A DNA stretch of 64,000 nt from an uncultured delta proteobacterium (GCA_963743305.1 CAVUPH010000010.1:32001-96000), one strand, 5' to 3'. Positions 14,716 through 39,053 are shown, counted from the first letter of the stretch. Numbers and translations: made by a program. The notes: a model not told the origin generated them from the sequence alone.

Positions 14716-14716
14716 T

Positions 14717-15568: not shown

Positions 15569-15569
15569 G

Positions 15570-18500: not shown

Positions 18501-20066
18501 CAAGATAGGATGCAGCAGGTCATTCAGGAAGAGGGTCTGAATCGCGTAATCGTCGCCTCCTGTTCCCCCCGGACCCATGAAGGTCTTTTCCAGGAGACCC
18601 TGCGCAAGGCCGGCTTGAACAAGTACCTCTTTGAGATGGCCAACATCCGGGACCAGTGTTCCTGGGTCCACCAGGCCGATCCGGAGATAGCCACGGAAAA
18701 AGCCCAGGACCTGGTGCGCATGTCCGTGGCTCGAGCCCAGCTCCTCGAACCTTTGTACGAGATCCCTTTTCAGGTGAATCAGAAAGCCCTGGTGGTCGGA
18801 GGCGGGGTGGCCGGGATGACCGCGGCCCTCAATCTGGCTGATCAGGGATTTGAAACCTATTTGGTCGAAAAGAGTGATCGGCTGGGAGGCAATGCCCTTC
18901 GTCTGGCCTTCACGCTGGAGGGGTTTGATGTCAACGAATACCTGCAACGACTGATCGGCCAGATACAAGACCACCCCAAGGTACGTCTCCTGACCCAAAC
19001 GAAGCTGCTGGACGTCCAAGGACACATCGGGAAGTTCAAAAGTACTATAGAACACCAGGGCCAAAAAGATGTCTTGGAATACGGTGCGGTAGTGGTTGCT
19101 ACCGGCGGCAGCGAGTATACCCCGGAGGAATACGCCTACGGTCGGGATCCCCGGATTCAGACTCAGTTGGAACTTCACCAGTGGCTAAGCCGGGAACCGG
19201 AAAAGGTTTCCCAGGTCAAGCAAGTGGTCATGATCCAGTGCGTGGGTTCCCGGGAGGAAGCGCATCCCTATTGCAGCCGGGTCTGCTGCTCCACGGCCGT
19301 AGCCAATGCCCTGAAAATAAAAGAGCTCAGCCCCCGAACCGAGGTGATCGTCCTCTATCGGGATATGCGCACCTATGGACAGAAGGAACTGTTTTACAAA
19401 AAGGCCCGAGAGGCCGGGGTGCGCTTTATCCGCTTTGAACCGGAGGCCAAACCGGAGGTTACGGTTGAGGAGGGGAAGCTGGAGGTCAAGGTCCTGGATC
19501 AAAACCTGAAGACCGGAATTGTTATTCGTCCGGACCGCCTGGTCCTTTCGGCGGCTGTCCGTCCGGCCCCGGAAACCAAGGGTTTCGCTTCTCTTTTGAA
19601 ACTGCCGCTGGATGCCGACGGCTTTTTTCTGGAGGCCCACATCAAATTGAGGCCTCTGGATTTTGCCAATGCCGGCATGTTTCTTTGCGGTTTGGGGCAT
19701 GGCCCCAAGTCCCTGGAAGAAAGTATCGCCCAGGCCAAGGGGGCCGCGGCTCGGGCCGCCACCGTCCTGGCTCAGGAACAAATCAGCGTCGGGGGCCAGG
19801 TGGCCGTAGTAGACCAGGAGCGCTGTATCGTCTGTCTGACCTGCGTGCGTACCTGTCCCTTCGGTGTACCCCAAGTGAATGAAGAGGGGATGATCGAGAT
19901 CAATCCGGCCGCCTGTCAGGGCTGCGGAAACTGCGCCAGCGCCTGTCCCCGTAAGCTGATTCAGGTTCAAAACCAGCGGGATGACCAGATCATGGCCAAA
20001 GAAACGGCCTTGTTTGAATGGGGGGGAACGGCCAGGAGCTGGGGCAGCGTTTTACCGGCAGCCTGA
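15570..20066 (+). CDS. hdrA: large HdrA (HdrL-type) with inserted GltD/NfnB-like NAD(P)H oxidoreductase module
   Basis: [13 protein letters not shown], two IQCVGSR...YCS modules, inserted PCKATCP...CGYVCTHPCEGVC / GSGPAG / GGGNVAVD module, C-terminal ferredoxin; 1498 aa. Confidence 0.9.
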   Translation: MESSAVESPLGEKEKIGAVMVVGSGISGMQSSLDLANAGYKVFLVDKNVSIGGVMAQLDKTFPTNDCSTCMISPKLIEVASNPNIEVLTRTRVKGLSGEPGHFTVALHREPRFVKEEACTGCGDCVKVCPIEVPADFNLGLNRRKAIYRHFPQAVPSTFAIDRNGTSPCKATCPAHISVQGYVALIAQGQFEEALALIRRENPLPFVCGYVCTHPCEGVCQRGEKVDEPIAIRELKRFVAEYERRRGAVKLPLLEAKRTENIAVVGSGPAGLTCAYYLALKGYGVTIFEALPKAGGMLTVGIPNYRLPKEIVEREIKAIEGLGVTIRLNEPIGPGHTLEQLKEEGFKAVYIGIGAHRGIRLGIEGEDLAGVVAGVDFLRRTALGRQESLGKKVAVIGGGNVAVDAVRTALRLGSDEAQILYRRTREEMPAYAEEIEEALEEGVTIHYLTAPIRFIGDAAGRLTAVECIQMELGDPDASGRRRPVPVQGSQFQIPVDGVITAISQQPELDNFTLPDGVVVSRYGTFSVDPSTLQTDVPWIFAGGDAVLGPKTVIEAIAQGKEAALSIDRFVKGEDLKAGREKSFEIAEVETQNIPAAPRFKPLRSDPDSRRSNFEEVVRVMTEEEAQAEASRCLACGICSECYQCVTACKAGAIDHTMQGEDLSLEVGALVVSPGFETFDARLKGEYGYGRYPNVITSLEFERILSASGPFQGHVQRLSDGREPVKVAWIQCVGSRDASINRDYCSYVCCMYATKQAIIAKEHVTTIEPTIFFIDIRAQGKGFDRYYERAKKDHGVRYLRSLVSRVAENPKTHNLQIAYIDENNAFQSEEFDLVILSVGLNAHSESKELAQCLGIATDRFGFCENPPLNSVGTSQPGIFVSGVFQNPKDIPETVTQASGAAAEAAALLSEARGTQISEMVFPEERAIQGEEPRIGVLICHCGINIAGIVDVEKVTEYAKTLPGVVYADHFLFTCSTDSQDRMQQVIQEEGLNRVIVASCSPRTHEGLFQETLRKAGLNKYLFEMANIRDQCSWVHQADPEIATEKAQDLVRMSVARAQLLEPLYEIPFQVNQKALVVGGGVAGMTAALNLADQGFETYLVEKSDRLGGNALRLAFTLEGFDVNEYLQRLIGQIQDHPKVRLLTQTKLLDVQGHIGKFKSTIEHQGQKDVLEYGAVVVATGGSEYTPEEYAYGRDPRIQTQLELHQWLSREPEKVSQVKQVVMIQCVGSREEAHPYCSRVCCSTAVANALKIKELSPRTEVIVLYRDMRTYGQKELFYKKAREAGVRFIRFEPEAKPEVTVEEGKLEVKVLDQNLKTGIVIRPDRLVLSAAVRPAPETKGFASLLKLPLDADGFFLEAHIKLRPLDFANAGMFLCGLGHGPKSLEESIAQAKGAAARAATVLAQEQISVGGQVAVVDQERCIVCLTCVRTCPFGVPQVNEEGMIEINPAACQGCGNCASACPRKLIQVQNQRDDQIMAKETALFEWGGTARSWGSVLPAA

Positions 20067-20116
20067 AACGGCCTTTGGTCTCAATCTAAACCCCAAAGGG
20101 GGGAGGAAAAACTTTT

Positions 20117-20617
20117 ATGCAAAATGGCGCCCTTAATCCCAGGCCCGGCTATGAACCAAAGATCATCGCCATGGTCTGTACTTACTGTACCTATACCGCC
20201 GCCGACATGGCCGGATCCATGCGCCTCCAGTATCCGCACAATGTCCGGATTGTCAAGTTGCTCTGTACCGGGAAGGTAGACGTCATTCATCTGCTGAAAA
20301 CCTTTGAAGCCGGCGCGGATGCCATCCTGGTCGGAGGCTGAGAAATCGGCGACTGCCATTTCCTGGAAGGAAATCTCAGAGCTAAAGAAAGAGTGGCCTA
20401 TACCCAACAATTGATGGATGAAATCGGTCTGGATGGCCGTCGGCTGGAGATGTATCACATCGGGGCCTCCGATGCCCCCAACTGGGCCCGGGCCGTCCGA
20501 GAAATGACCGAACGGGCCCTGTCGTTGGGGCCGAATCCGATTCGGAAAAGGATGATGGAATGTGGATCGATGCCCCGACCCCTGACGGTCGTTGAGGCCC
20601 AACAGGCCAAGGACTAA
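20117..20617 (+). CDS. mvhD: MvhD-like 2Fe-2S subunit, selenoprotein (UGA at 20339-20341)
   Basis: In-frame readthrough gives ILVGG-U-EIGDCHFLEGN, matching the MvhD GCxxGDCH motif; ORFs 20117..20341 and 20393..20617 share a frame; 166 aa. Confidence 0.9.
20358..20374 (+). promoter_or_regulatory. putative bacterial SECIS hairpin
   Basis: ATTTCCT-GGA-AGGAAAT perfect stem with G-containing loop, starting 17 nt after the UGA. Confidence 0.6.
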
Positions 20618-20632
20618 CTGAAGGAGTGCACT

Positions 20633-21313
20633 ATGATCGTTGCCGAGAGAAAACCATTTGCCGAGATTGAGGCCATGCTGGCCCCTTATAAGAAAGTGCT
20701 GATCGCCGGCTGCGGCACCTGTGTGGCCGTTTGCCTGACCGGCGGGGAAAAGGAAGTCGGTTTGCTGGCCGCCGAGTTGTCCATTGCCTCCCAGATCAAA
20801 GGACGATCCCTGATGATCGGCGAGGCCACCGTCGAGCGACAGTGTGACCGGGAATTTCTGAGCGAACTGAAAGATCCGATCGAGGACTGCGAGGCCGTTC
20901 TTTCTCTGGCCTGCGGGGCGGGCATTCAATTTTTGGCTGAAATGTACGACCAGAAACCGGTATTTCCAGGGGTGGATACCACCTTCATCGGGGTGAATGA
21001 GGAGGTCGGATTCTGGACCGAACGCTGCCGGGCCTGCCACGAGTGCGTCCTTCATGTGACCGGGGGGATTTGCCCCAAGACCATCTGCGCCAAGGGATTG
21101 CTCAACGGTCCCTGCGGAGGAACCGTTCGGGGAAAATGCGAGGTGGATACGGAGAAGCCCTGCGCCTGGACCTTGATCTACCAGCGTTTGGAAAAAACCG
21201 GCCGCCTGGACCAAATCCGTCGGACCCTGGAACCCGGCCGCTATGATCGCCGGACGACTCCGGCCTATCAAACCCACGCCGCCTACAAGAGGAGATTTGA
21301 ATCCCATGCCTAA
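20633..21313 (+). CDS. metV: methylene-THF reductase Fe-S/Zn subunit MetV
   Basis: GCGTCVAVC, ACGAG, ERCRACHECVL, GGICPKTICAKGLLNGPCGG and PCAW. Confidence 0.9.
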   Translation: MIVAERKPFAEIEAMLAPYKKVLIAGCGTCVAVCLTGGEKEVGLLAAELSIASQIKGRSLMIGEATVERQCDREFLSELKDPIEDCEAVLSLACGAGIQFLAEMYDQKPVFPGVDTTFIGVNEEVGFWTERCRACHECVLHVTGGICPKTICAKGLLNGPCGGTVRGKCEVDTEKPCAWTLIYQRLEKTGRLDQIRRTLEPGRYDRRTTPAYQTHAAYKRRFESHA

Positions 21314-22190
21314 GTCATTCCAGGAAGCCCTGAAGTCCGGAAAATTTTTGGTGACGGTGGAGCTCGATCCCCCCAAGGGGGTGGAGTCCGGGGAGTTGGT
21401 CCGGCAGGTGCAAACCCTCAAAGACCGGGTGGACGGCATTAACCTCTCGGACAATCGCGGGGGCGTCATGCGGATGAGCGCCCTGGCTGCCTGTCTTCTG
21501 ACCAAACAGGCCGGCGGGGAACCGATACTCAATCTGGCCTGTCGCGATAAAAACCGGATCGCCCTGGCCTCCGAGGCCCTGGGGGCGGCCGGCCTGGGGG
21601 TCTCCAACATCCTCTGTATGACCGGGGACCATACCACCCATGGAGATCATAAGGAAAGCAAGCCGGTTTATGATCTGGATTCGGTCCAGGCCCTGAAAAT
21701 GCTCAAAGGAATGATGGGCGGAAAAGACCTGAACGGCAACGCCCTGATCGGTGCCCCGACGTTTTGCCTGGGCGGCGTGGTTACGCCCGAGGCCGACCCG
21801 CCGGAACCGCAATTGTTGAAGTTTACCAAAAAGGCGGAAATCGGACTGGATTTTTTTCAAAGCCAGGCCGTCTTTGAACTCGACCGGCTTAAGGAGTTCA
21901 TTCACTATGCCCGAAAGTTTGAGGCCAAAGTGATCATCGGTGTTCGTCTGCTCACCTGGGAGGAAATAACCGGCTACCGGGACGGCTCTTTGCCTGGTGT
22001 GCTGGTGCCGGCGTCCTTGATTGACCCGCTTCGCCAGGCCGGCGAAAGCGAAGGCCCCCAAAGGGCCCTGGAGTTGACGGTCAATCTAATCAAAGAAATC
22101 AAGGCGCAGAACCTGGGGGACGGCGTCCACCTGATGGCCATGGGGCAGGAACATCTACTACCCGAGATCATGACGAAAGCAGGGATTTAG
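21306..22190 (+). CDS. metF: methylenetetrahydrofolate reductase MetF
   Basis: VELDPPKG, ACRDKNRIAL, LCMTGD and FFQSQ motifs; overlaps the end of metV. Confidence 0.9.
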   Translation: MPKSFQEALKSGKFLVTVELDPPKGVESGELVRQVQTLKDRVDGINLSDNRGGVMRMSALAACLLTKQAGGEPILNLACRDKNRIALASEALGAAGLGVSNILCMTGDHTTHGDHKESKPVYDLDSVQALKMLKGMMGGKDLNGNALIGAPTFCLGGVVTPEADPPEPQLLKFTKKAEIGLDFFQSQAVFELDRLKEFIHYARKFEAKVIIGVRLLTWEEITGYRDGSLPGVLVPASLIDPLRQAGESEGPQRALELTVNLIKEIKAQNLGDGVHLMAMGQEHLLPEIMTKAGI

Positions 22191-22208
22191 CAAGAACGGA
22201 GGATTCTT

Positions 22209-23474
22209 TTGACGGCACCATCGCAACCCGATCCTAAAGACTCAAAAAGAGTGTTAATCCTAGGCGGCGGGATCGCCGGCCTTTCCTGCGCCGACCATTT
22301 GAGCAAAATGGGACTTTCCGTAACGGTGGTGGAAAAAAATCCCTCCATCGGAGGCCAGGCCCTGAATTTTTTCTGCAAGGCCACCGAGACCTGTGAAAAA
22401 TGCAACTACTGCTTGGTGGAAGAGCGGTTGACCGAGGTGGTCCGGCAACCCGGGATCGAAATCCTGACTCGGGCCAGGCTGCAGCAGGCCGAACCCTTGA
22501 GCGCCGGGGGGTTTATGGTAACCATCGAGCAGGAGGCTGCCTTTATCGATCCCGAGCGTTGCAACAATTGCGGCCATTGCTACGAGGTCTGCCCGGCGGT
22601 GGACGAGGGGGCTATCGTCAAAGGCCTTCCTTCCTCGGTAACCCATCCCTTGTATTCCATTCAACGGGCCCACTGCCTTTATTTTAAAGACCCTCACGCC
22701 CGGCTTTGCCAGGAGAATTGTCCGGAGCAGGCGATTGACCTGGATCGTCTGCCCGTGGCCCATCGGTTTCCGGTCCAGTCTCTGGTGGTGGCGACCGGCT
22801 ATACCCCTTTTGATCCCCGGGATAAACCGCGGTTGGGGTACGGAGTCCTTCCCAATGTGATTACCGCCCTGGAATTGGAGCGGATGATCCGGCTGGAAGG
22901 GGATGTCCGTCGCCCATCGGACGGAAAGAGACCGGAGCGTCTGGCCTTTATCCAATGTGTGGGCTCCAGGGATTTGACCCTGGATCATCCGTTTTGTTCG
23001 CGGGTCTGCTGCGGTTACGCCCTGCGCATGGGCAAGGCCATGAAGCATCGCTGGCCGGAAATGGACCCCTATGTCTTCTACATGGACCTCCAGAACTTCG
23101 GAAAGGATTTTATCCCCGCTTACGAAGAGGCCAAAGACAGCCTGACCCTGATCCGGGGCATACCGGGCAGCATCAATCCCGCCGCGGATGACCGGATCGC
23201 CCTGGGCTATCAGCCGGAAGGCGGGGGACCGCCCCGGGAAGAGGTTTTTGACCTGCTGGTCCTCTCCGTAGGCCTCATGCCTTCAGCGGAAAATGAACAG
23301 TGGGCCAAATGGTTCCAGCTTCCCCGAACAGTGGACGGATTCTTAAAGGATCATCCCGAAGAGGGGATCTTTACGGTGGGCACGGTGACCGGTCCCATGG
23401 ATATCGCTCAATCCGCTGCCGACGGCGGCCGAGCGGCCCGTATGGTGGCCGATTATTTAGGAGTTTGGTCATGA
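22209..23474 (+). CDS. short HdrA-like (QmoA-like) flavoprotein with ferredoxin insertion
   Basis: GGGIAG, CNNCGHCYEVCP and IQCVGSRD...FCSRVCC; TTG start. Confidence 0.8.
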   Translation: MTAPSQPDPKDSKRVLILGGGIAGLSCADHLSKMGLSVTVVEKNPSIGGQALNFFCKATETCEKCNYCLVEERLTEVVRQPGIEILTRARLQQAEPLSAGGFMVTIEQEAAFIDPERCNNCGHCYEVCPAVDEGAIVKGLPSSVTHPLYSIQRAHCLYFKDPHARLCQENCPEQAIDLDRLPVAHRFPVQSLVVATGYTPFDPRDKPRLGYGVLPNVITALELERMIRLEGDVRRPSDGKRPERLAFIQCVGSRDLTLDHPFCSRVCCGYALRMGKAMKHRWPEMDPYVFYMDLQNFGKDFIPAYEEAKDSLTLIRGIPGSINPAADDRIALGYQPEGGGPPREEVFDLLVLSVGLMPSAENEQWAKWFQLPRTVDGFLKDHPEEGIFTVGTVTGPMDIAQSAADGGRAARMVADYLGVWS

Positions 23475-23540
23475 CGGGCCCGCCAGAGGTCCGTCAACAG
23501 GCCGAGGGCGATTAAGCCCCGGCCTGGGGTGAGGGTGGGA

Positions 23541-23589
23541 CCATTTGAATTCACTTCAAATGGCGGGAGAGGGGAAGCCCTCTCCCGCC
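23541..23589. repeat. two abutting perfect hairpins (REP/BoxC-like)
   Basis: CCATTTGAA-TTCAC-TTCAAATGG and GGCGGGAGAGGG-GAAG-CCCTCTCCCGCC; GGGGTGAGGG lies just upstream. Confidence 0.7.
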
Positions 23590-23629
23590 GAGTAGAAAGT
23601 CGTTTTTGGACTTTTTACGAGGTTATTTT

Positions 23630-25769
23630 ATGCTAGAAGTAGAACCGAAGATCGGCGTCTTTCTTTACCATAAAGAAAAGAGAATGCCGGACACACCGGG
23701 CAGCGAGGATTTAAAAATGCTGGCCGGTTCCTTTCCCGGGGTGGAGGTCGTGGAGGACCTGTTCGAAGACCACTGGGAGGCCAGCGCCAGCCGACTGGAG
23801 CAGGAGATCCGAACCCATGATCTGTCCCGGCTGGTCTTTGTCTCCGACCGGGGGTCGAACCGATCCGGCTTTTTCCAAAAGGAGGCGACCCGCCTGGGCC
23901 TTCATCCCGATCAGGTGTTAATGGTGAATGTGCGACCGGTTTTCAGGGGAACCGCAGCGGAACCGGAACTGGTCCGGGAACGATCCATCCTTTTACTGAA
24001 ACAAGCCCTCCTGCGGTTGCCATCCACCGAGACCCCGACCCGGGAACAGGTGGAAACCATTCCCCGCCTGTTGATTTTAGGAAGCGGGCCGATGGGACGG
24101 CTGGCCGCCAGGGAAACCGTCCGGCTTGGATATGAGGCGCTGGTCCTGGTGGACGGCAAGGAATCCGACCGGGACGGGTATTATGATCAGGTCTCCGGGG
24201 TGGAGGGGGAGGACGGACGCCTCTCCGAATTGACCGCCCTGCCGGGATTTCGCCTGGTGACCGAGGCCAAACTCATCAGCCTGGAAGGTCAGGTCGGGCG
24301 TTTTACGGTTCGCTACCTGGATGGGGAAGATCGGATTCAGGAAGAAGCGGTGGGGGCTGTCCTGGTCGCCCTGGCGCCGGAAGTGAAGGCCAACTTTGAG
24401 GCCTTCGGCCTGAAACCCTCCCGCCGGGTCCTTTCCTTGGACCAACTGGAAACCCTGTTACGTTCACCGGAGTATCGGGAAAAATTGATTCCCCAGGGAG
24501 AGCGGACCGAGATCGTTTTCCTGTCGGGTCTGGCGTCCGAGTCCGGTCCTCCGGTGCTGGCCAGGGCCCTGAGTAACGCCCGAAAAGTCCAGGGGCTGGA
24601 AAATACCCAGGTCTATTTCCTGTCGGGAAACCTGAAAGTGGCCGCTGAGGGGTTGGAGCGGGAGTCAACCCGGGCCCGCGAGGAAGGGGTTATTTTCTTC
24701 CGCTTCACCGGTCAGCTTCCGATTGTGAAAACAACGGAGGCCGATCTCCAAGTGGAGTTTTTCGATGAGATCATCGACCGCACGCTGATCTTAAACCCGC
24801 AGGTCATCGTGGTGGATGAAGACCTGCTTCCCCACCCCTGGCTGAAGGAACTCTCCCCTATCCTGGAGACGCCGCTGGATCAAAAGGGATTTATGGTTCC
24901 GGATCAGGTTTACGCCCTGCCGGTCCGAGCCCCCCGCCCGGGAATTTATGTAGTGGGCGGCAGCCGTCGGCCTTTCGCCGACCCGGAGGAAATACGAGCC
25001 GAAGTGGAGGAAGCGGTCCTGTCCGCCGCGGCATCGATCGGCCGGGGGATTCGAGAGGTGGAGTCGCGGGTTCGAGTCGACCGCAAGAAGTGCACCATTT
25101 GTCTGACGTGCGTCCGATCCTGTCCCCATCAGGCCATGCATTTCGTCCTTCGCCGACCTCAGGCCCATCCCTTGGCCTGCCAGGTCTGCGGGGTCTGTGC
25201 GGCCGAATGTCCCATGGACGCCATCCAGATCAAGGATTTTCAGGATGCCGTCGTAATCCGGGAGATCTCCGGGAATTTTACGGACCGGAAATTCGACACG
25301 ATCGTGCCCCAGGTGGTGGCCTTCTGTTGCCAGAATTCAGCGGAAAAGACCCTGCAGCAGGCCCTGTTGTTCCGGGAACCGCTGCCCATCGGGTTTGAGT
25401 TCATCAAGGTCCCCTGCGCCGGGAAGATCGATCCGGATCACGTGCTGCACGCCTTTCGGGAAGGGGCCGACGGGGTAGTGGTCCTGGCCTGTCCGATTGA
25501 GGGCTGCAAATCCTTTCGAAGGAAACAAAAAGGCCCTGGAACGGGTGGAGTATCTTCGGGAGGTCCTGACTGAGTTGGGTCTGGAGCCGGAACGGATCCA
25601 GTTCGAAACCGTCGGCCCGGGCATGCTGGCCCAACTGCTCAAAACCTGCCAGACGGTGGAGGAGAGGATTCGCCGGTTGGGGATCAGCCCGGTCCGCCGA
25701 GCCAAGGGGATCCAGCGGATTTACGATCAGTTCACCTTCCCGGTGGATTCGAAGACCTTTGTAATCTAA
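23630..25769 (+). CDS. degenerate HdrA-ferredoxin-MvhD fusion (QmoB-like), apparent frameshift near 25515
   Basis: HdrA-like body, CTICLTCVRSCP and CQVCGVCAAECP, then MvhD motifs VAFCC, PCAGKID and ACPIEGCKS, continuing as FEGNKKALERV in ORF 25497..25769. Confidence 0.8.
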
Positions 25770-29660: not shown

Positions 29661-29680
29661 AGTCTAATTGACCCCCGACC

Positions 29681-30506
29681 CTATTTCCAGGTCACCCGAG
29701 GCGGATTGCGGACCGGGATACGCGGGTACTGGAATTTCAGGATAGCCGACCATCACGGCCCCAAAGGCAAGATGATCCTTGGGTAGGCCCAGGGCCTCAA
29801 ACAGGGGAGGGTAGGCATTTACCGTCTTGTACATATAGCCGCCCCAGCAGACCCCCAACCCGAGGCTCGTGGCGTACAGGTCGAGCAGGCTCAAGGCCAG
29901 GGCGGTATCCTCGGGACCGAAAAGCCAGTTTCGGTCGGCATGACAGATGATGAGATGGGGTGCCTCCCGGCAGACCCGATCCAATCCCGTGTCCCAGGCG
30001 GCGACCACCCGGTGATAGCCCAGCGCTTTTCCGGCCTCCGGGTTTGAATCCAGGACCGCCCGCATGGCCTTCACGACCAAGCCGGCCAACCGCCGGACTT
30101 CTTGGGGCTCCTGGACCACAATCCAGTGCCAGGGTTGCTGATTTTTGGCTGACGGAGCGGAACAGGCTATCTCCAAAAGTTTTTCCAGGGTCTCCCGAGG
30201 GACCCTCTTCTCCTTAAAGGTCCGGATCGAGCGCCGGGCCTGTAGAAACTGCTCGGCCTGTTCGGGGGTCACAGTCCGGTCCTTCTCCAGTGTTCGGCAA
30301 TTTTCCGGATCCAGCCAGTCAAGACGCAAGGCCCCCACGGGGCAAACGGCCACACAGTGTCCGCATCTGATGCAATACTCCTCAAAATCCGAAGTGGGAA
30401 GGGGATAGCCCTCCTTTTCATCCATCTGAATGATGCGGGCTGGACACTCGCTGATACAAATACCGTCCTGATTGCATTTCTCGCGGTCTATGGTGATACG
30501 GTTCAT
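29681..30506 (-). CDS. ferredoxin-nitroreductase fusion, apparent frameshift near 29740
   Basis: CNQDGICISECP, CIRCGHCVAVCP, RRSIRTF and APSAKNQQPW; the shifted frame ends KFQYPRIPVRNPPRVTWK*, like the in-frame paralog at 38330. Confidence 0.85.
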
Positions 30507-30677
30507 CGGTTCCTCCTTTTTTAAACGGCAGCGATTCAATTATGATGAAGTGATTTCAAAAGGTCAAAGATATAATCCGAAAAATCGGCGGCTGCCCGGT
30601 TTTGCCGACCGTCTCGCGATACCTGATAGCAAATTGTGAGTTGAAGTTTTTCCTTTTTCAAATTAGTATTGATCCCT

Positions 30678-31370
30678 ATGGATTCGGAATCGTACGAAAA
30701 ATCCATTGAGGCCTTGACCCTGATCAGTAAGGCCATTACCTCGGATCAATACCTGGAAGATATTCTGCGTTTGATCGTTATCGTCACGGCCCAGGTGATG
30801 GGGACCAAGGTCTGCTCCCTCTGGCTGCTGGACGATAAAACCAACGCCCTGACCATTCGCGCCACCCAGAGCCTGAGTAGCGACTACCTGAAAGAGCGGT
30901 CCCTCAAGGTAGGTGAAGGGGTGGTCGGAACAGTGGCGTTACAAAACAGACCGTACATGGCTCTGAATGTCTTGGAAGACCCGTTTTTCAAGGAAAAAGA
31001 TCTGGCCCGGAAAATGGGGCTGGTCTCCATCTTGAGCGTGCCCATGAGCCTCCGGGACCGGGTGGTCGGGGTCATCAATTGCTACACCTCCGAGCAGCAT
31101 GCCTTCACCGAAACCGAACAGAACATCTTTACCACCGTGGCCAACCAGGCTGCCGTGGCGATCGTCAACACCGAACTCATGGTCAAAACCAAGGTTATCC
31201 AGGAAGAGCTGGAAACCCGCAAGCTGGTCGAACGGGCCAAGGAAGTCCTGCTTCGCCGCCGGAATCTTTCGGGTGACCAGGCCTTTCGCTGGATACAAAA
31301 AAGGAGCATGGATTCCCGTAAATCCATGCGGGAAATCGCCGAAGCCGTTCTGCTCTCCGAAGAAATTTAA
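30678..31370 (+). CDS. GAF-ANTAR RNA-binding antiterminator
   Basis: GAF domain followed by ELETRKLVERAKEVL...AFRWIQKRSMDSRKSMREIAEAV (ANTAR). Confidence 0.92.
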   Translation: MDSESYEKSIEALTLISKAITSDQYLEDILRLIVIVTAQVMGTKVCSLWLLDDKTNALTIRATQSLSSDYLKERSLKVGEGVVGTVALQNRPYMALNVLEDPFFKEKDLARKMGLVSILSVPMSLRDRVVGVINCYTSEQHAFTETEQNIFTTVANQAAVAIVNTELMVKTKVIQEELETRKLVERAKEVLLRRRNLSGDQAFRWIQKRSMDSRKSMREIAEAVLLSEEI

Positions 31371-31660
31371 CCCCTCTGGTTTCTTTTTCCACGGGCCCCT
31401 AAGAGAGCGATTATTGAATCCCGGCCGAGTCTTCCAGCGGTGCGGGAAAATCCGGAGGGGCAAGGATCGTTATCCGGTTGACCTTTTTTTAATGTTCCCT
31501 TAACATGCAACTATCTGCCGGTATCCTTTAGCGCGATGTCCACCCTGATCGGTCTATTACCAACTCGGGGGAAGAGGTGTGGTCCAGCCCGGCTTTGGGT
31601 GAAACGTACTTCGTTTGATCGCTTACCTCCCCCCAGGTTAAAGAAGGGTTTGTTTTTTCT

Positions 31661-33427
31661 ATGGTCTTTAAGTTTTTTCTGCCCTTAGCGCTGATCATTT
31701 TTGGGCTGGGGCTGATTTACAAAATCTACTTCTGGTTCACCCGGGGCCTGGTTCAGACTTCAAGGGGTATTACCACCCCGCAAAGGGTCAAAGCCGCTTT
31801 TCAGGGAGTTTTTAAAACAATCTTCAGCCTTCAAGCAGGCACCCTGGTCAAGGCCCTGGTCCTAGATGTGTTTCTTCAAAGGAGGACCTTTAAGGAAGAT
31901 CGCCTGCGCTGGGCCATGCATCTCTCCATCTACTGGGGGTTTATGGTCCTGCTCCTGATGCATGCCTTGGGGAGCCTGATCACGGCCCCTCTTTTCCCTT
32001 CTTATCATTCGACGGTCAACCCCTTCTTTTTTCTGCGCGACCTCTCCGGTTTGCTGGTCCTGGCCGGAATGGGCCTGGCGGTCTGGCGGCGCTTTATCCG
32101 AAAAGTCCCCCGTCTGAAAACCCATGGTATGGACTATTATGCCCTGGCCATCCTGCTTCTGATCCTGGGCTCGGGGATCCTCTTGGAAGGGGTCAAGATC
32201 ACCTCTTATTCCGAATTTCTACAGATGGCGGAGGACTACGGAGCCATCGATTCCCGTTGGGAAGGGAACCAGGAATTGCAGGCCCTGGAAACCTTGTGGG
32301 TGCGGCAATACGGGCTGGTTTCCCCTAACGTCAAGGGTCCTGGAGATTCCCGGGTGCTGGCCAAGGGAAAGGAAATCCATGAAATGAGTTGCCTGGAATG
32401 TCATTCCGCCACCTCCTGGGCCCTTTTAGGTTATCCCACGGCCAAACTGCTGAGCCCACTGGCCCTCTTCCTGGATCGGAGGGGACTGCCCGCTATTCTT
32501 TGGGTGGTGCACGTGCTGAGCTGCCTTATCGGCCTGGCCTACCTGCCCTTCAGCAAGATGGGTCATATCCTTTATACCCCCCTATCCCTGTTGATGAATG
32601 CGGTCATGGACCGGGAGCGGTCCCACCCGGCCAACATCGCCACCCGGCAGATGATCGAATTGGACGCCTGCACCCATTGCGGGACCTGCAGTATCCGCTG
32701 CTCGGTGGGGGCGGTCTACGAATCCTGGGGCAATGAAAATATATTGCCTTCGGAGAAGCTGCACGCTCTCAAGGCCCTGGTCCGCGGAAAGAACGTGGAA
32801 CCCCGGCAGCTCAGGTCCCTCTTGGAAGGGGTCTATTGTTGTACCAGTTGTGACCGGTGTACAGTAGTCTGCCCCTCGGGAATCAACCTGAAAGAACTCT
32901 GGGTCGATCTGAAAGAAGACCTGGTGCAAAGGGGTATCCCGGAACGACTGATCCTTTCTCCCTATTCATTCGCTCGCGGACTGAACCAGGCCATCCACCC
33001 CCGGAAAGAATATGAGGCACCCGTCCAACTGGCCAGGCAAGCCGTGGCCTTACCTTTTGAGGAGGGGAAAACGGCGGAGCATCCCTTGGCCCTGAGCCCT
33101 CAGGTCCCGGTCCTTCCGGTGTTTCTGCCGGACGCCCGCAATTTCGCCAACTGTTTTGTCTGTCAAAACTGTACCAATATCTGTCCGGTGGTTGCCGCCT
33201 TTGAGAATCCGGAGGAGGTCCTGGGGCTCCTCCCCCACCAGATTATGACCAGCCTGGGTCTGGGGTTGATCGATCCGGCGCGAGGCAACCGGATGATCTG
33301 GGACTGCCTAACCTGTTATCAATGCCAGGAGCACTGCCCTCAGGGGGTTATGGTGACCGATCTCCTCTATGAGTTGAAGAACCTGGCGGCCGGGAATCAG
33401 AGAGGATCGGCCGGTCTATCCGGGTAA
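31661..33427 (+). CDS. membrane NarI/HdrE-type cytochrome b with CxxCH insertion fused to two 4Fe-4S dicluster domains, copy 2
   Basis: WAMH...LMH and VVH...MGH His pairs, CLECH, four complete CxxCxxCxxxC motifs. Confidence 0.85.
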   Translation: MVFKFFLPLALIIFGLGLIYKIYFWFTRGLVQTSRGITTPQRVKAAFQGVFKTIFSLQAGTLVKALVLDVFLQRRTFKEDRLRWAMHLSIYWGFMVLLLMHALGSLITAPLFPSYHSTVNPFFFLRDLSGLLVLAGMGLAVWRRFIRKVPRLKTHGMDYYALAILLLILGSGILLEGVKITSYSEFLQMAEDYGAIDSRWEGNQELQALETLWVRQYGLVSPNVKGPGDSRVLAKGKEIHEMSCLECHSATSWALLGYPTAKLLSPLALFLDRRGLPAILWVVHVLSCLIGLAYLPFSKMGHILYTPLSLLMNAVMDRERSHPANIATRQMIELDACTHCGTCSIRCSVGAVYESWGNENILPSEKLHALKALVRGKNVEPRQLRSLLEGVYCCTSCDRCTVVCPSGINLKELWVDLKEDLVQRGIPERLILSPYSFARGLNQAIHPRKEYEAPVQLARQAVALPFEEGKTAEHPLALSPQVPVLPVFLPDARNFANCFVCQNCTNICPVVAAFENPEEVLGLLPHQIMTSLGLGLIDPARGNRMIWDCLTCYQCQEHCPQGVMVTDLLYELKNLAAGNQRGSAGLSG

Positions 33428-33441
33428 GGTGGATTAGAACC

Positions 33442-34329
33442 ATGAAATTTGCGCTCTTTATCGGCTGTAACATCCCGGCCCGGGTCGTCCAGTACCTGAC
33501 TTCGGCCCGGGCGGTCCTGGACCGTCTGGGGGTCACCCTGGTGGATTTCCGAGGTTTCGGGTGCTGCGGATACCCTCTGCGGGCATTAGACCAGAATGGC
33601 TATCTCTTGTCCGCGGCCAGGAACCTGGCCATCGCCGAAAAGGCCGGGTTGGATATTCTGGCCCTCTGCAAGTGTTGTTTTGGAAGCCTGAAAAGGGCCG
33701 CCCAGGTCCTGGAGGAAAACCCCTTGCTGGCGGAAGAGGTGAACCGGTTTCTGGGCCGGGAAGGGTTGAAGTACCGAGGCGGCGGTCAGGTGAAACATCT
33801 TCTTTCGGTCCTCTACCAGGATGTGGGTCTGGAGGCCCTTCAGGGAAAAATCATCCAGCCCTATAAGGGACTGAAGATCGCCCCCCAGGTCGGGTGCCAT
33901 GCCCTCCGGCCGAGCCGGATAACCCAATTTGATGATCCCCTCCATCCGGTTATCTTCGACGCCCTGGTCCGGGCGACCGGCGCCGAGAGCCTGGATTGGG
34001 ACAGCCGGCTGGATTGCTGCGGGGCCCCCCTGCTGGGAGTCAACGACGAGGTTTCTCTGAAGCGGACGAGAGACAAGATAAAAAAAAGCCGGGAGGCCGG
34101 GGCCGATTACCTTTGTACGGCCTGTCCCTTCTGTCAGTTGCAGTTTGAGACGGTCCAAAAGAGGTCGCTCTCCTTCGAGGGAGCTGAAGAACCGCCAGCT
34201 CCCATTTTGTATACGCAACTGCTGGGAATCGCGCTGGGCCTCGACCGGAAGTACCTCTGGCCCCAGGGGGATTCCCCGGAGTTTAGCGGGCTTATTCGTT
34301 TTTCAAGTGAGGAATCAAACCATGCCTAA
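33442..34329 (+). CDS. hdrB: HdrB-like CCG-domain protein
   Basis: FIGC, GCCGYP, CKCC, VGCH, DCCG and CPFC. Confidence 0.9.
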
Positions 34330-37300
34330 GGAGACCATCGGGGCGGTCCTGGTGATCGGGGGCGGTATTACCGGGATGCAGGCCGCGCTGGATCTGGCCA
34401 ATTCCGGCTATTACGTCTATCTGCTGGAAAGGTCCCCCTCCATCGGCGGGATGATGAGCCGCTTGGACAAGACCTTCCCGACCAACGATTGTGCCCTTTG
34501 AATTATCTCCCCGAAGCTGGTCGAGGTCGGCCGGCATATCAACATCGAGTTGCTTACCCTGTCCGAGGTGAACCGGATTTCCGGTGAGGCCGGGAACTTT
34601 GAAGTCCGGGTAACCCGGCATCCCCGGTATGTCGATCTGGAAAAATGCATCGCCTGCGGCCTTTGCGCTGAAAAATGTCCCCGTAAGGTAGCCAATGAAC
34701 AGGACAGTGGTTTGGGACAGCGCAAGGCGATCTATGTTCAGTATGCCCAGGCGGTCCCGCTGAAATACGTCATCGATCCCCGGGAATGTATCTATCTGAC
34801 CAAGGGGAAATGCCGGGCCTGTGAAAAGTTTTGCCCCACCGGCGCCATCCGCTTCGACGATCGGGAAAGCGAACGGACCCTGAAGGTAGGCGCCGTCGTC
34901 CTGGCCCAGGGAAGCCGGACCTTTGATCCGGCCGTTTACGATACCTTCGGTTATCAGAGCTCTCCCAACATCGTCACCACCCTGGAGTTCGAGCGCATCC
35001 TCTCCTCCTCCGGTCCCTATGGCGGCCATCTGGTCCGCCCGTCAGACGGCCGGGAGCCGCGCAAAATCGCCTGGTTCCAGTGCATCGGTTCCCGGGACGA
35101 GCATCCCGGCGCCCGAAGCTATTGTTCCGCTGTCTGCTGCACTTTTGCCATCAAAGAAGCGATGCTGGCTAAGGAACACGTCCAGGGCGACCTGGACACG
35201 GCCATCTTTTATATTGATTTGAGGACCTATGGCAAGGACTATGAACGCTACTATAATCGCGCTCGAGAGGAGCTGGGCGTCCGGTTCATCAAATCCCGGG
35301 TCAGCCACCTGGAGCCGGTCGGCGATACCGGCCGACTCCTCGTCCGCTACGTCGACGAAAGCGGCCGGCGGAGGGAGGAAGAATTCGATCTGGTCGTGCT
35401 CTCCGTCGGTCTGGGTCAGACCCCGTCCGGGGTGGAACTGGCCGGGAAGCTGGGGGTGGAACTCAACCGCCATCAGTATGCCCAGGTAAGCAGCTTCCAT
35501 CCGGTGGAGAGCGGAAGGCCCGGCATTTTTGTCTGCGGCGCCTGCCAGGCTCCCAAGGATATTCCCTCCTGCGTCGTGGACTCCAGCGCCGCCGCCGCGG
35601 GTGTCGGCGGGCTGCTCTCGGAGGCCCGCGGGTCACAAACGCGGACCCGGGAAATCCCCTCGGAAATCGACGTCCGCGGAGAAGCTCCCCGGGTGGGTGT
35701 ATTTGTCTGTTGCTGCGGTACCAACATCGCCGGCGTGGTCGATGTCCCGGCGGTGGTTGAGTTCGCCAAGACGCTGCCCGGCGTAGTCTATGCCGAGCAG
35801 AACCTTTTCAGTTGCGCTCAGGACAGCCAGGAAAAGCTGGCCCAGATCATCCGGGATCAGCACCTGAACAAGGTGGTGGTGGCGGCCTGCACCCCCCGGA
35901 CCCACGAACCGCTATTCCAGGAAACCTTAACCAATGCCGGACTCAATAAATACCTCTTTGAGATGGCCAATATCCGCAACCAGTGCTCCTGGGTGCACCA
36001 ACACCAGCCGGAACAGGCCACGGAGAAGGCCAAAGATCTGGTCCGGATGGCCGCCGCCAAAGCGGTCCTATTGCAGCCCCTGCCGGAGCCGACGCTCGAT
36101 ATCAATCAGAAGGCGCTGGTGATCGGCGGCGGTCTGGCCGGCCTGTCCGCCGCCAGGACCCTGGCCGATCAGGGGTTCAAGACCTACCTGCTGGAAAAAA
36201 GCGCGGTCCTCGGAGGTCAGGCCCGGCGGGTTTTTCAGACCTGGAAGGGCGAGGAGGTGCAGCCTTCTCTGGACGGGTTGATCGGGTCCATCACCCGGGA
36301 TGAACGGATCAAGGTGTTCCTGAATTCGCAGATAACGGGGGTGGACGGGTTTGTGGGGAATTTCAAGACCACCATCGAGTCGGAACGGGAGACCCGAGTC
36401 TTGTCCCACGGCGTGACCATCATCGCTACCGGCGCCTCCGAACTGAAACCCGATCAATATTTTTACGGTCAGGATGCCCGGGTATTAACGGGGCTGGAAT
36501 TACAACGACGGTTTATTGACGGCGATCCGGCCCTGAAACAGATCAAGACGGCGGTTTTTATTCAGTGTGTCGGCTCAAGGATCCCCGAGCGGCCCTACTG
36601 CTCCCGGGTCTGCTGCACCCGCAGCGTGAAGGGCGCCCTGACTTTGAAGGAGATCAACCCCGAAGCGCGAATATTCATCATCTATCGGGATATGCGGACC
36701 TACGGGCTGCGAGAGGACCTTTACCGGGAAGCCCGTCAGAAAGGGATTTCCTTTATACGGTATAATTTTGATCAGGGCTTGACGGCCGCCCGGGATAACG
36801 GCGCTTTGACCCTGTCTTTTACGGACACGGCGCTCAAACGGGTTATGGAGGTCCGCCCCGATCTCCTGGTGCTGGCCTCGGCCATCGTTCCCGAAAAGGA
36901 GAATCCCCTGGCCCAGTTTTATAAGGTACCGCAAAACGCCGATGGGTTTTTCGTCGAGGCCCATGTAAAACTGAGGCCGGTGGACTTTGCCACCGACGGG
37001 GTTTTTCTCTGCGGGCTGGCCCAGGCCCCCAAATCAATTGACGAATCCATCACCGAGGCCCAGGGTGCCGCGGCCCGGGCAATAGCCCTGCTCTCGGCCG
37101 GGACGATTAGCGTGACGGGCACGGTGGCCTCGGTCATCCCGGCGGCCTGCAGCTCTTGCGGAGTCTGTGTTTCCATCTGTCCCTATTCCGCCCCGTCGTT
37201 CAATGAAAAAACCGGAAAAGCCCAAATTCAAGCCACCCTCTGCAAGGGCTGCGGACTTTGTACCGCATCCTGCCGATCGGGGGCTATTACCCTTAAAGGG

Positions 37301-37345
37301 TTTGAGACCGACCAGGTCATGGCCATGATCGAATCGGCCCTCTGA
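34322..37345 (+). CDS. hdrA: HdrA, selenoprotein (UGA at 34499-34501)
   Basis: Readthrough gives [19 protein letters not shown] versus [19 protein letters not shown] in the paralog at 15570; in frame with ORF 34550..37345; 1007 aa. Confidence 0.92.
34516..34535 (+). promoter_or_regulatory. putative bacterial SECIS hairpin
   Basis: GCTGGTCG-AGGT-CGGCCGGC, 8-bp stem with two G-U pairs and an AGGU loop, starting 15 nt after the UGA. Confidence 0.7.
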
Positions 37346-37427
37346 GACCGGGGGGGCGGCGCATAAGCACTAAGTGATTATTGCGCCGGATGAACTGTTC
37401 AAGAGTTCCTAAAAAAAGAGGTTGGTT

Positions 37428-37731
37428 GCCCTTTTGGGTGGGTGGCCACAATATATAGTAGATTAATCCGAGATCGGGCCTCCGTGGCCGTGGGGTCTTG
37501 GCGAAAGGGTTTTCCATATTGCTTTTTAGGTTCTAACCCGGCCCCCAGACACTCAAAGTTTCCAGGAGACAGGGCCAGACAAGAAGACATCAAAATACTC
37601 TGAGTATGGGCCTGCTTTAAATAAAATTAGCAATTTAGGCCCGGATTCGAAGTCCGGAGTACCTTTGGAAAACCCTTTCGCCAAGACCCCACGGCCATAT
37701 CAGATCTGGGGGGGGACCCACCCAAAAGGGC
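37428..37731. repeat. 304-bp composite inverted repeat (REP-pair/MITE-like)
   Basis: Perfect 16-bp arms at 37428-37443/37716-37731 and perfect 32-bp arms at 37485-37516/37666-37697. Confidence 0.85.
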
Positions 37732-37788
37732 GAAGCGTCAAAAAATAGAACCTAGTTACCCTTTAATTCCAGTGAGGAGGAGGGCACC

Positions 37789-38244
37789 ATGATTGACCTA
37801 ACTAATTTAAGAGCGATTATTATGCTGAGCTATCTGACGGACCCGATGCTGAAGAAGCTGGAAGAAGTCACCCTGATAAAAAAGTACGGGGAAAAGGAGT
37901 ATATCTTCCAGGAAGGGGAATACGCCGAGCATCTGTTTGCCGTTATCGAAGGTCGGGTCGGCATGGAGCTGGCCAAGAATCCTTCCCGGCACATAACCAT
38001 CCTGGAAGTGACCAAGGGGATGGCCTTTGGGATGGCTTCCCTGGTAGATACGGAAAACAGGAAGTATATCGGCTATGCCAAGGCTCTGGTTCCCACCCGG
38101 GTTTTCGCCTGGAAAGGAGCCGACCTGGACAAGCTTTTTATTCAGGATTATGAAATGGGCTTTTTGATTATGAAGCGGGCGGCCAATATCCTGAACCGGA
38201 GAATGGATATTGCTTTTGCCCAGTTTGTAGATATATGCCTTTGA
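37789..38244 (+). CDS. stand-alone cyclic-nucleotide-binding (Crp N-terminal) domain protein
   Basis: YIFQEGEYAEHLFAVIEGRV...GMAFG; no HTH; GAGG RBS. Confidence 0.85.
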   Translation: MIDLTNLRAIIMLSYLTDPMLKKLEEVTLIKKYGEKEYIFQEGEYAEHLFAVIEGRVGMELAKNPSRHITILEVTKGMAFGMASLVDTENRKYIGYAKALVPTRVFAWKGADLDKLFIQDYEMGFLIMKRAANILNRRMDIAFAQFVDICL

Positions 38245-38329
38245 GGAGGGAGTTTGGCTCCTGACCGGATAGAGGTCCCCTCAAGGGATAGTCTAACGAG
38301 TCAAACACCGACCGCATTAACCCCTGAAC

Positions 38330-38873
38330 CTATTTCCAGGTCAACCGAGGCGAATTTCGAACCGGGATGCGCTGGTACTTAAACTGAGGATAGCCGATCA
38401 TCAAGGCTCCAAAGGCGAGATGATCCCTGGGCAGGCCCAGGGCCTCGAAGAGGGGGGGTAGGCGTTCACCGTTTTATACAAGTAGCCCGCCCCCAGTAGA
38501 CCCCTAAACCGACGCTGGTTGCATACAGGTCGAGCAGGCCCAAGGCCAGGGCAGTATCCTCGGGGCCGAAACGCCAGTTTCGGTCGGCATGAACGATGAT
38601 GAGATGGGGCGCCTTCCGACAAACGCGATCCAATCCCGCGTCCCAGGCGGCGATCACCCGGTGATAGCCCAGGGTTTTCCCTGCTTCCGGGTTTGATTCC
38701 AGGACCGCCCGCATGGCCTCCACGACCAGGCCGGCCAGCCGTTGAACTTCTTGGGGACGCGGGACCACGATCCAGTGCCACGGTTGCTGATTTCTCGCCG
38801 ACGGTGCGGAGCAGGCCACCTCCACTAGTTTTTCCAGGGTCTCCTTTTTTTGAAACGGGAGCGCGCCGATCAT
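38330..38873 (-). pseudogene. nitroreductase paralog lacking the ferredoxin N-terminus, frameshifted
   Basis: High similarity to the C-terminal two-thirds of the gene at 29681..30506 (ACSAPSARNQQPWHW...GPEDTALAL); frame breaks near 38490. Confidence 0.85.
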
Positions 38874-38910
38874 GCTCCCAGCAACCCTTTATGGTCTTAA
38901 AGTCCTTTCC

Positions 38911-39053
38911 AGGTCAAAGATATTATCCGCTACCCGGCGGCTACTCGGATTGGCCGGCCGTCTCCGGTATCAGGATAATAAATTGTGAGTTGAAGTTTCC
39001 CTCTTTTCTAATTATTATTCATTCCCATGGATTCGAAAGCAAACGAAAAATCC
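38911..39053. repeat. diverged direct copy of 30561-30704 (intergenic region plus start of the GAF-ANTAR gene)
   Basis: Shared AGGTCAAAGATAT, AAATTGTGAGTTGAAGTTT and ATGGATTCG (MDSKANEKS versus MDSESYEKS). Confidence 0.85.

Follow-up and report, generated by a model that had tools for sequence, protein, structure and literature searches.

Modules of the heterodisulfide reductase (Hdr) type HdrABC are the model case of flavin-based electron bifurcation, and in the solved complexes HdrC bridges the flavin of HdrA to HdrB. These modules are regarded as soluble, and their route to the membrane is an open question. Related parts are also found in several membrane systems. HdrDE, DsrMK(JOP), TmcABCD and HmcABCDEF all associate a NarI-type cytochrome b with a cytoplasmic protein made of iron-sulfur (Fe-S) and CCG domains; Tmc, Hmc and DsrJ add periplasmic c-haems, and electrons cross the membrane to the CCG site. 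QmoABC of sulfate reducers, a quinone-interacting membrane complex, consists of two HdrA-like flavoproteins and a fusion of an HdrC-type Fe-S part with a cytochrome b of the NarI/HdrE type. EtfABCX/FixABCX bifurcates electrons from NADH to ferredoxin and quinone. Here we describe a three-gene operon located at positions 31661-37345 of a 64,000-nucleotide stretch of DNA from an uncultured delta proteobacterium (GCA_963743305.1 CAVUPH010000010.1:32001-96000), called the window below, in which HdrC is fused to a NarI-type cytochrome b and is encoded together with HdrB and a selenocysteine-containing HdrA. We propose, with a probability of about 0.6, that the three products form one membrane complex whose haems b and c would link HdrA to the membrane. 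The HdrC-to-membrane link would then be written in the gene itself, as an HdrC domain fused to a quinone-type cytochrome b with a conserved outward haem c motif.

The described proteins that come nearest to the product of the first gene (gene 1) are EMO, EtfD and HdrF, which likewise have an N-terminal five-helix NarI-type cytochrome b, then an HdrC-like 2x[4Fe-4S] domain and an HdrB-like CCG module. For the EMO of S. aciditrophicus (SaEMO), a cryo-EM preprint (10.64898/2026.08.18.745454) places the N-terminus in the periplasm and the C-terminal Fe-S domains in the cytoplasm, and describes the dicluster domain located just after the NarI domain as a bridge from the haems to the HdrB-like domain. 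The HdrF of D. autotrophicum is presented, in PMC2702500, as a combination of transmembrane (TM), HdrC and HdrB parts encoded beside glpAB or etfAB. The original prediction, made from the sequence of the window, knew of no characterised complex with the layout of this operon. Indeed, our literature search found no description of the operon or of a NarI loop with a CxxCH motif (reviews or supplements may mention it), but the order NarI, Fe-S, CCG is known and has been solved in EMO/EtfD. The CCG module, which belongs to the same chain in EMO, EtfD and HdrF, is here encoded by a separate gene. Compared with EMO, gene 1 has a second dicluster domain (HdrC), both His residues of the distal haem and a CxxCH-bearing insertion in the loop between TM4 and TM5. 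The partner of EMO, an ETF:(methyl)menaquinone oxidoreductase, is the electron transfer flavoprotein (ETF), whereas here it would be HdrA (with or without NuoEF), and the operon contains no etf genes. As read from its sequence, the operon therefore represents a new arrangement of known modules, with one new element, the candidate haem c motif borne by the loop. The EMO/EtfD order, the two types of dicluster domain, the fused nature of HdrA and the existence of loci with NuoE/F genes were all missing from the original prediction.

Three plus-strand genes were delineated by an open reading frame (ORF) scan. Gene 1 (31661-33427) encodes 588 residues, identified by ORF analysis, Pfam, NCBIfam and homologs as a NarI-type cytochrome b followed by two 2x[4Fe-4S] domains. 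After a gap of 14 nucleotides comes hdrB (33442-34329), encoding an HdrB-like subunit of 295 residues with two CCG domains (PF02754, TIGR03288 and synteny), whose end overlaps by 8 nucleotides the start of hdrA (34322-37345). The latter encodes a fused double HdrA of 1007 residues read through one TGA codon (ORF, Pfam and alignment to 5odc_A). This agrees with the predicted operon of gene 1 with hdrB and a selenocysteine (Sec) hdrA, the Sec being backed by orthologs with Cys and by a hairpin, as detailed below. The five-helix NarI module, four His residues, CLECH and four 4Fe-4S motifs that the original prediction had seen in a single polypeptide are likewise all present in gene 1, where it had placed them.

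The membrane domain of gene 1 (residues 1-305; 31661-32575, plus strand like all operon features) was defined by hydropathy, PF02665 and His conservation. Hydropathy gives five predicted TM segments (TM1 1-22, TM2 85-110, TM3 123-141, TM4 160-180 and TM5 279-300), and the Nitrate_red_gam family (PF02665) matches residues 77-180 only (profile positions 39-145; 28.9 bits for a cut-off of 22.9). Lys and Arg residues number 11 in loop 23-84 and six in loop 142-161, both predicted to be cytoplasmic, and there are none in the short outer loop 111-122. The predicted topology is that of NarI, with the N-terminus outside and the C-terminal Fe-S part inside. H87 (31919-31921) and H101 (31961-31963) lie on TM2, H284 (32510-32512) and H302 (32564-32566) on or at TM5, and all four are placed as putative ligands of a proximal and a distal haem b. 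The spacing of 18 residues between the two His of TM5 is also that of H233/H251 in SaEMO, according to the preprint cited above. The four His are kept at 80 of 80 loci, which are the best 80 of at least 506 related loci in species-representative genomes and the basis of all locus counts given here. They are also kept in 76 of the 78 cluster representatives that cover every site. These representatives were obtained by searching the membrane-domain profile against 1.84 billion cluster representatives (1315 matches at E <= 0.001, 536 at 1e-10 and 182 at 1e-30); counts were made on the best 150 of the 1315, among which 105 cover the motif columns and 78 every site.

Structure comparisons were made with AlphaFold2 (AF2) models. 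With the full-length model of gene 1, Foldseek returned nothing at E <= 0.001, the best match being 9ojn (M. smegmatis EtfD; E 7e-3). A second search, independent of Foldseek and run with the membrane-domain model, gave 9ojn_A (EtfD; Z 8.1, root-mean-square deviation (rmsd) 7.8, 187 residues aligned), 5oc0_A (E. coli CybB; Z 8.0, rmsd 3.7, 137 aligned), 4gd3_A (hydrogenase-1 cytochrome b; Z 6.7, rmsd 7.0, 149 aligned), 1q16_C (NarI; Z 6.3, rmsd 5.0, 126 aligned) and 1kqg_C (FdnI; Z 5.6, rmsd 4.3, 126 aligned). EMO/EtfD is thus the best structural match to the gene-1 models, with scores in the range, below a Z of about 13, that is common for helical bundles.

The loop between TM4 and TM5 (residues 181-278; 32201-32494) is predicted to be periplasmic on account of the NarI topology deduced from the distribution of Lys and Arg, as the original prediction had supposed. 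The insertion of about 100 residues before the last helix that it had announced corresponds to the whole loop (98 residues), but the insertion proper is shorter: compared by hhalign with gene 1, two NarI-like paralogs encoded in this genome lack about 65 residues (approximately 183-250), and the alignment resumes at W253..Y258. Among the NarI-like proteins of the genome, the insertion is specific to the gene-1 family. In the AF2 models the loop is helical (183-194, 204-217, 230-243 and 257-273), and the CxxCH ends helix 230-243. This motif, CLECH (C244, C247 and H248; 32390-32404), is a candidate covalent haem c motif by its pattern and its conservation. A search over 5.8 billion proteins scored 8000 candidates, of which 2598 had E <= 0.001. 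The best 120 homologs measure 578-621 residues, are 54-100% identical with 98-100% query coverage, and bear generic names only ('heterodisulfide reductase subunit C/nitrate reductase gamma subunit', '4Fe-4S dicluster domain-containing protein'). Three alignments (16, 73 and 28 sequences) show no substitution of C244, C247, H248 or any of the four His. CxxCH, the four His and Met189 (32225-32227) are all present at 80 of 80 loci, and His240 at 75. Among the representatives, CxxCH is kept in 104 of the 105 that cover the motif (P0256 being the exception), and, where every site is covered, Met189 in 78 of 78 and His240 in 49 of 78. The conservation across homologs of both the motif and a candidate distal ligand, envisaged by the original prediction, is therefore observed, and it greatly exceeds what chance would give. 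With respect to these last two counts, Met189, and not His240, is the best candidate for the sixth ligand of the haem c.

The CxxCH is also kept, as had been noticed before, in a paralog of gene 1 located in the window (4583-6286, minus strand; 567 residues, 43% identical), which has CAQCH at the place aligned with CLECH. This paralog has lost one Cys in Fe-S domain 1, where the motif for the second cluster is CTGCYRGNLYCP instead of CxxCxxCxxxCP; this second cluster may be absent or otherwise ligated. The genome encodes a CcsA-type haem c maturation protein (PF01578, CcsA/CcmC/CcmF type; 190.1 bits, contig C13). The closest paralog of the membrane domain (L081:1377-4440, contig C12; hhalign probability 99.6) is a protein of 505 residues with seven CxxCH motifs in its N-terminal part and a NarI-like domain. 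The same cytochrome b core is thus joined to c-haem sites in two independent ways, which supports the view that the loop motif binds a haem c turned towards periplasmic carriers. From these elements we infer that the CxxCH of the loop is probably a periplasmic haem c attachment site. The 505-residue paralog is followed by an HdrD-like gene (462 residues, Fe-S and CCG) and preceded by multihaem and cytochrome b-like ORFs. Another NarI-like paralog of this genome, 266 residues long and devoid of the insertion, adjoins an HdrD-like gene and an etfA-like gene. Finally, three family members present an in-frame stop inside the membrane domain, L068:5834-6793, G279:C1:1674087-1675037 (TGA) and G087:C76:4389-5339 (TAG), and may be pseudogenes, sequencing errors or cases of further recoding.

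The cytoplasmic part of gene 1 contains four motifs of the CxxCxxCxxxC type, detected by Pfam as Fer4_8 at 333-408 and Fer4_10/9/17 at 494-563. Fe-S domain 1 (residues 326-425; 32636-32935), with two 4Fe-4S motifs, resembles the N-terminal type of HdrD, DsrK, TmcB, HmcF and GlpC, with partial NCBIfam matches to the N-terminal regions of GlpC, HmcF, DsrK and TmcB. Fe-S domain 2 (residues 493-581; 33137-33403) is a dicluster of the HdrC type, recognised by solved HdrC chains, TIGR03290 and the N-terminus of qmoC. Its residues 495-577 match the HdrC of five methanogen complexes, including 8rvv_C, 8rvu_c and 5odc_C (E 8e-9 to 5e-8), and its Cys residues are invariant in the 73-sequence alignment. 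It is the sole part of gene 1 that matches solved structures by sequence, and EtfD gave no sequence match to gene 1 at E <= 0.01. Gene 1 is accordingly annotated with two predicted dicluster domains that differ in kind, one of HdrD/DsrK type and then one of HdrC type.

The HdrB-like protein matches PF02754 with 76 bits and has two CCG stretches. Each of its twelve Cys positions is covered by 72-76 homologs and conserved in 69-76 of them, and both predicted non-cubane cluster sites are intact. When the gene-1 tail (residues 305-588, with its four 4Fe-4S clusters included) was submitted to complex prediction with HdrB, the median score was 0.34, against 0.05 for the best control. The runs share at least 61% of their contacts, the predicted local distance difference test (pLDDT) of the partner is at least 85, and no interface was reported. 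In the benchmark, 58 of 80 solved complexes and two of 110 mismatched pairs reach the mark; at scores of 0.60 or below, just seven of the 80 do so, together with both mismatches. This modelling faintly suggests that HdrB may dock on the cytoplasmic tail of gene 1, and the pass may come from likeness, HdrBC being a solved pair.

The hdrA product was aligned with HdrA of M. thermolithotrophicus (5odc_A; E 1.5e-196). Residues 9-379 correspond to positions 146-510 (FAD domain and inserted ferredoxin domain), residues 454-626 to positions 2-174 (N-terminal cluster domain and start of the second Rossmann domain) and residues 869-1005 to positions 510-648, including the C-terminal ferredoxin domain. 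All parts of 5odc_A are therefore matched, spread over two fused halves. Sec/Cys197 is in half 1, which has no N-terminal domain; half 2 has this domain but not Sec/Cys197. By this alignment HdrA is a fusion of two complementary halves, that is, a fused asymmetric 'heterodimer', so that the Sec-HdrA of the original prediction stands, but not as a single HdrA. Fused HdrA proteins of ANME archaea and Moorella are described in PMC9012536, with the N-terminal domain in one half and, in the other, a Cys197 that is lent to its cluster. The same paper gives the view of Chadwick (2022) that a fused HdrA is its own heterodimer partner, the half with the N-terminal domain coming first. The halves of the window HdrA are complementary for Cys197 and the N-terminal domain in the manner described there, but the half with the N-terminal domain, which comes first in ANME HdrA3/4 according to this paper, comes second in the window.

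In the gap-free first block, U60 falls on position 197 of 5odc_A and C57 on position 194. The corresponding TGA (codon 60; 34499-34501) is thus aligned with Cys197 of HdrA, and at this position TGA is found in 48 genes, that of the window counted, and TGT/TGC in 13 genes of related loci. A hairpin core of 19 nucleotides begins 15 nucleotides past the TGA (34517-34535). Even at synonymous positions this core does not differ among 47 of the 48 TGA genes, and none of the 13 Cys genes has the identical sequence; the flanking codons are variable. It folds like a selenocysteine insertion sequence (SECIS), with an 8-bp stem and the loop AGGU. The folding energy of the SECIS region is like that of shuffled sequences (z 0.75), and the Sec reading is based on the comparative TGA/Cys and hairpin data, not on folding energy. 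SelB is present in the genome (363.5 bits, cut-off 242). On this comparative footing we consider it settled that the TGA of hdrA is a true Sec codon. Sec197 is a feature shared with HdrA of M. maripaludis, for which a 2026 report on the super-assembly (PMC13518236) mentions that a Cys-Sec bridge may connect cluster A3 with FAD.

The family to which this operon belongs is real, strongly conserved and widespread. HdrB is next to gene 1 in 76 of the 80 loci, and HdrA follows in 53 of the 58 loci whose sequence extends for at least 1500 nucleotides after HdrB (after gene 1 in loci devoid of HdrB). By profile (E <= 1e-40), it was detected in 65 of the 401 genomes sampled from the phylum, the window's own genome (G000) included, in 51 of 339 genomes of good quality and in 36 of 254 genera. 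Leaving G000 aside, all 13 genomes sampled from the taxonomic family to which the window belongs carry it. The loci come from Desulfobacterales, Desulfobacteraceae, Syntrophobacterales, Desulfatiglandaceae and Thermodesulfobacteriota and from the metagenome-assembled genomes Eth-SRB1 and Eth-SRB2, which we take to be the sulfate-reducing partners in ethane-oxidising enrichments. In 18 of the 80 loci (among them L004, L006, L007, L011, L022, L027, L032, L033, L045 and L047), the cluster also includes NuoE-like (2Fe-2S thioredoxin-like) and NuoF-like (FMN/NADH-binding) genes. Their recurrence points to NAD(H) as the redox partner in part of the family. At L004 (6533-12526) hdrA is split: a first piece of 127 residues containing Sec is followed by NuoE, NuoF and a third gene, in which a 2Fe-2S/4Fe-4S N-terminus is fused to HdrA from about residue 101 on. 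This arrangement amounts to an NADH module inserted into the flavoprotein gene.

The other membrane and soluble Hdr-like systems, of which Qmo and DsrMK/Tmc count with EMO/EtfD/HdrF as the nearest known, also differ from this operon in their make-up. HdrD, DsrK, TmcB and HmcF have their Fe-S and CCG parts fused and their cytochrome b separate, which is the opposite of gene 1. The c-haems of Dsr, Tmc and Hmc are carried by separate multihaem subunits, and these systems have no HdrA. The homology of HdrA, HdrB and HdrC is shared with the soluble HdrABC-MvhAGD and fused-HdrA complexes (ANME HdrA3/4; MetFV-HdrABC-MvhD). These are soluble or have an unidentified membrane partner, whereas in this operon HdrC is part of the same polypeptide as a membrane cytochrome, and no MvhD is encoded. 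For HdrCBA-MvhD-MetVF of S. ovata, in particular, PMC9430772 states that the membrane partner 'could not be identified'. The HotSeep-1 pair AMM42179-80 ('HdrA + haem c + CCG protein') was considered as a member of the same family and rejected: in the description given in PMC10553843, by which alone it was compared, the haems c and CCG are in one protein, and the pair looks different.

We propose the following working for the complex. Subunit 1 would be a NarI-type dihaem cytochrome b with a single haem c site in its loop and two cytoplasmic 2x[4Fe-4S] domains, subunit 2 HdrB, and subunit 3 the fused HdrA with Sec at the Cys197 position. The flavin of HdrA would split or merge electron pairs. 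Its high-potential arm would run from HdrA-FAD through the HdrC domain, HdrB and domain 1 to haem bP and haem bD, then to menaquinone and/or, via haem c, to cytochromes of the periplasm. Such a path would correspond to the continuous wire imagined by the original prediction. For the low-potential exit we suggest the ferredoxin domain inserted in half 1 of HdrA, and HdrB might act as a relay, as a DsrC-type disulfide site, or as both. In the variants with NuoE/F, NAD(H) would be the two-electron partner. This wiring is suggested as the simplest one because gene 1 has the two kinds of dicluster on either side of a linker, with one HdrB, and because HdrC bridges the HdrA flavin to HdrB in HdrABC and the dicluster of EMO bridges the haems to an HdrB-like domain. 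The quinone pool or periplasmic cytochromes would then serve as high-potential partner of a bifurcating or confurcating flavin, in a reaction like that of EtfABCX made from Hdr parts. The likeness to EtfABCX/FixABCX is a functional analogy only (a bifurcating flavin module with the quinone pool as high-potential acceptor), the proteins being unrelated (ETF and EtfX against Hdr) and having no transmembrane cytochrome and no c-haem.

That HdrA bifurcates towards quinone or cytochrome c is, by this analogy, a tentative and rather doubtful idea. The same doubt applies to the broader proposal that this would be the first HdrA bifurcating enzyme plugged into the respiratory membrane, connecting ferredoxin (NAD(H) in the NuoEF variants) with menaquinone in either direction, and also with the cytochrome c pool through a loop haem c stacked near the distal haem b. 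If true, Desulfobacterales, including partners of alkane-oxidising archaea, could, with no ion pump involved, raise electrons from the quinol level or from outside the cell to that of ferredoxin, or do the opposite. If the family did work as suggested, the current energy models of sulfate-reducing and syntrophic Desulfobacterota would lack a major route connecting ferredoxin/NADH with the quinone pool and with periplasmic cytochromes. The single CxxCH in the NarI loop and the Sec at the Cys197 position of the fused HdrA are defined targets for mutagenesis and spectroscopy.

Several observations weigh against a single membrane complex with haems b and c. All three proteins score below the cut-offs of the corresponding families: TIGR03288 (CoB-CoM HdrB equivalog) gives 217.5 bits for 345, NCBIfam HdrA2 966 bits for 1100, and TIGR03290 (HdrC equivalog) 49.3 bits for 160, which makes domain 2 HdrC-like and not a CoB-CoM HdrC. 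The mean pLDDT of the AF2 models is low to moderate (61.7 for the whole gene-1 protein, 67.2 for its membrane domain), and the structure-search scores of the modelled membrane domain, lying within the helical-bundle range, are consistent with the NarI assignment and do not prove it. No NuoEF, MvhD or other evident electron-input module is present in the window operon. A search of sequencing runs matched no RNA run, and the DNA runs share at most 0.17 of the words. The gene-1 paralog at 4583-6286 is followed by an HdrB-like gene (3729-4586, minus strand) with no hdrA next to it, and HdrA is also lacking at five of the 58 loci with room downstream (L014, L044, L063, L068 and L079), so that the membrane module and HdrB can work without HdrA. 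Fe-S domain 1 and HdrB, moreover, reproduce the make-up of HdrD/DsrK. The membrane protein and HdrB alone could then constitute a quinol (or cytochrome c):disulfide oxidoreductase similar to HdrDE, DsrMK or Tmc, with HdrA as a separate soluble flavoenzyme that is merely co-transcribed. We regard this as unlikely, given that a genuine second HdrC domain, the bridge to HdrA in HdrABC, is kept in all full-length members, and that HdrA comes next in 53 of 58 loci, its start overlapping the end of hdrB in the window. The nature of the loop motif bears on another part of the proposal. By Pfam, loop 181-278 matches no known cytochrome c domain family, and a query of the ESM Atlas with the isolated loop retrieved own-family fragments only (scores 0.83 and 0.78). 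With His240 varying (49 of 78), Met189 is the single conserved candidate for a distal ligand, and the SaEMO preprint describes an additional haem b, stacked at the distal site (10.64898/2026.08.18.745454). The CxxCH might hence form a dithiol or a metal site, or ligate an extra non-covalent haem near bD as in the twin haem of EMO, and the complex would be a plain b-type membrane Hdr. A dithiol, however, needs no His, and that which follows CxxC is kept in 104 of 105 representatives and at 80 of 80 loci; the loop is predicted to lie in the periplasm, where haem lyases act, and a CcsA-type gene is present; and a genuine multihaem c domain is found in the closest paralog. The absence of a covalent haem c thus appears quite improbable to us.

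A replacement of QmoABC must also be considered, in which the complex would deliver electrons from menaquinol to APS reductase, the two halves of HdrA standing for QmoA and QmoB. The composition is indeed similar to that of Qmo (two HdrA-like modules and a fusion of HdrC with cytochrome b), and the own genome (4.9 Mb), which encodes AprA (840 bits; G000:C40:39593-45626), gave nothing above the respective cut-offs for qmoC (best 73.9 bits for 300) or dsrA, although it is only 90% complete and the missing 10% may hold them. However, the operon is not beside aprA, which sits on another contig, and a soluble HdrC-like frame of 247 residues about 4 kb downstream of aprA hints at an arrangement of the QmoAB-HdrCB type there. 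Qmo has no HdrB, a subunit conserved here at 76 of the 80 loci, and no CxxCH loop, and its HdrA-like proteins are separate. Gene 1 itself scores 59.4 bits with the qmoC equivalog (cut-off 300), and the match positions confirm that its domain order differs from that of QmoC, as had been predicted: QmoC has Fe-S first and the membrane part last, and gene 1 is reversed, qmoC positions 17-92 falling on residues 495-577 and positions 162-318 on the membrane part. A role as Qmo substitute is accordingly very improbable, and the linking of HdrA to the membrane by a complex with haems b and c remains the reading that we retain.

The G+C content of the operon (0.53-0.60) is unremarkable compared with 0.48-0.60 over the window. 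A single promoter-like site (9/12) was detected at 31478-31506, and no terminator was found by scanning after hdrA. Rfam gave no match at E <= 1 over 30500-38500, and hence no curated SECIS or leader family, and the folding energy of the 5' leader is like that of shuffled sequences (z 0.46). Directly upstream, 30669-31370 encodes a regulator with GAF and ANTAR domains (RNA-binding, antiterminator type). It was examined as a possible regulator of the operon and dropped: the gene was not found at the two closest loci (L016 and L001) and has a weak match only at L039, and no ANTAR-type target hairpins were found in the 290-nucleotide leader of the operon.

A second Hdr cluster occupies positions 14006-25573 of the window. 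It comprises an HdrC-like protein (212 residues), an HdrB-like protein (305 residues) and an HdrL-type protein of 1498 residues combining a GltD/NfnB-like NAD(P) part with HdrA, followed by MetF (21243-22190), an FAD oxidoreductase and an Fe-S/MvhD (FlpD) protein. This is the MetF-Hdr arrangement typical of Wood-Ljungdahl organisms. Finally, a direct repeat comprising a nitroreductase/4Fe-4S gene region and its upstream sequence is present in two copies 8.65 kb apart (29667-30649 and 38316-38998), which are 78-88% identical over four blocks, the downstream copy being shortened and broken in its frame. The two copies flank the GAF-ANTAR gene, the Hdr operon and a gene for a cyclic nucleotide (cNMP)-binding protein.

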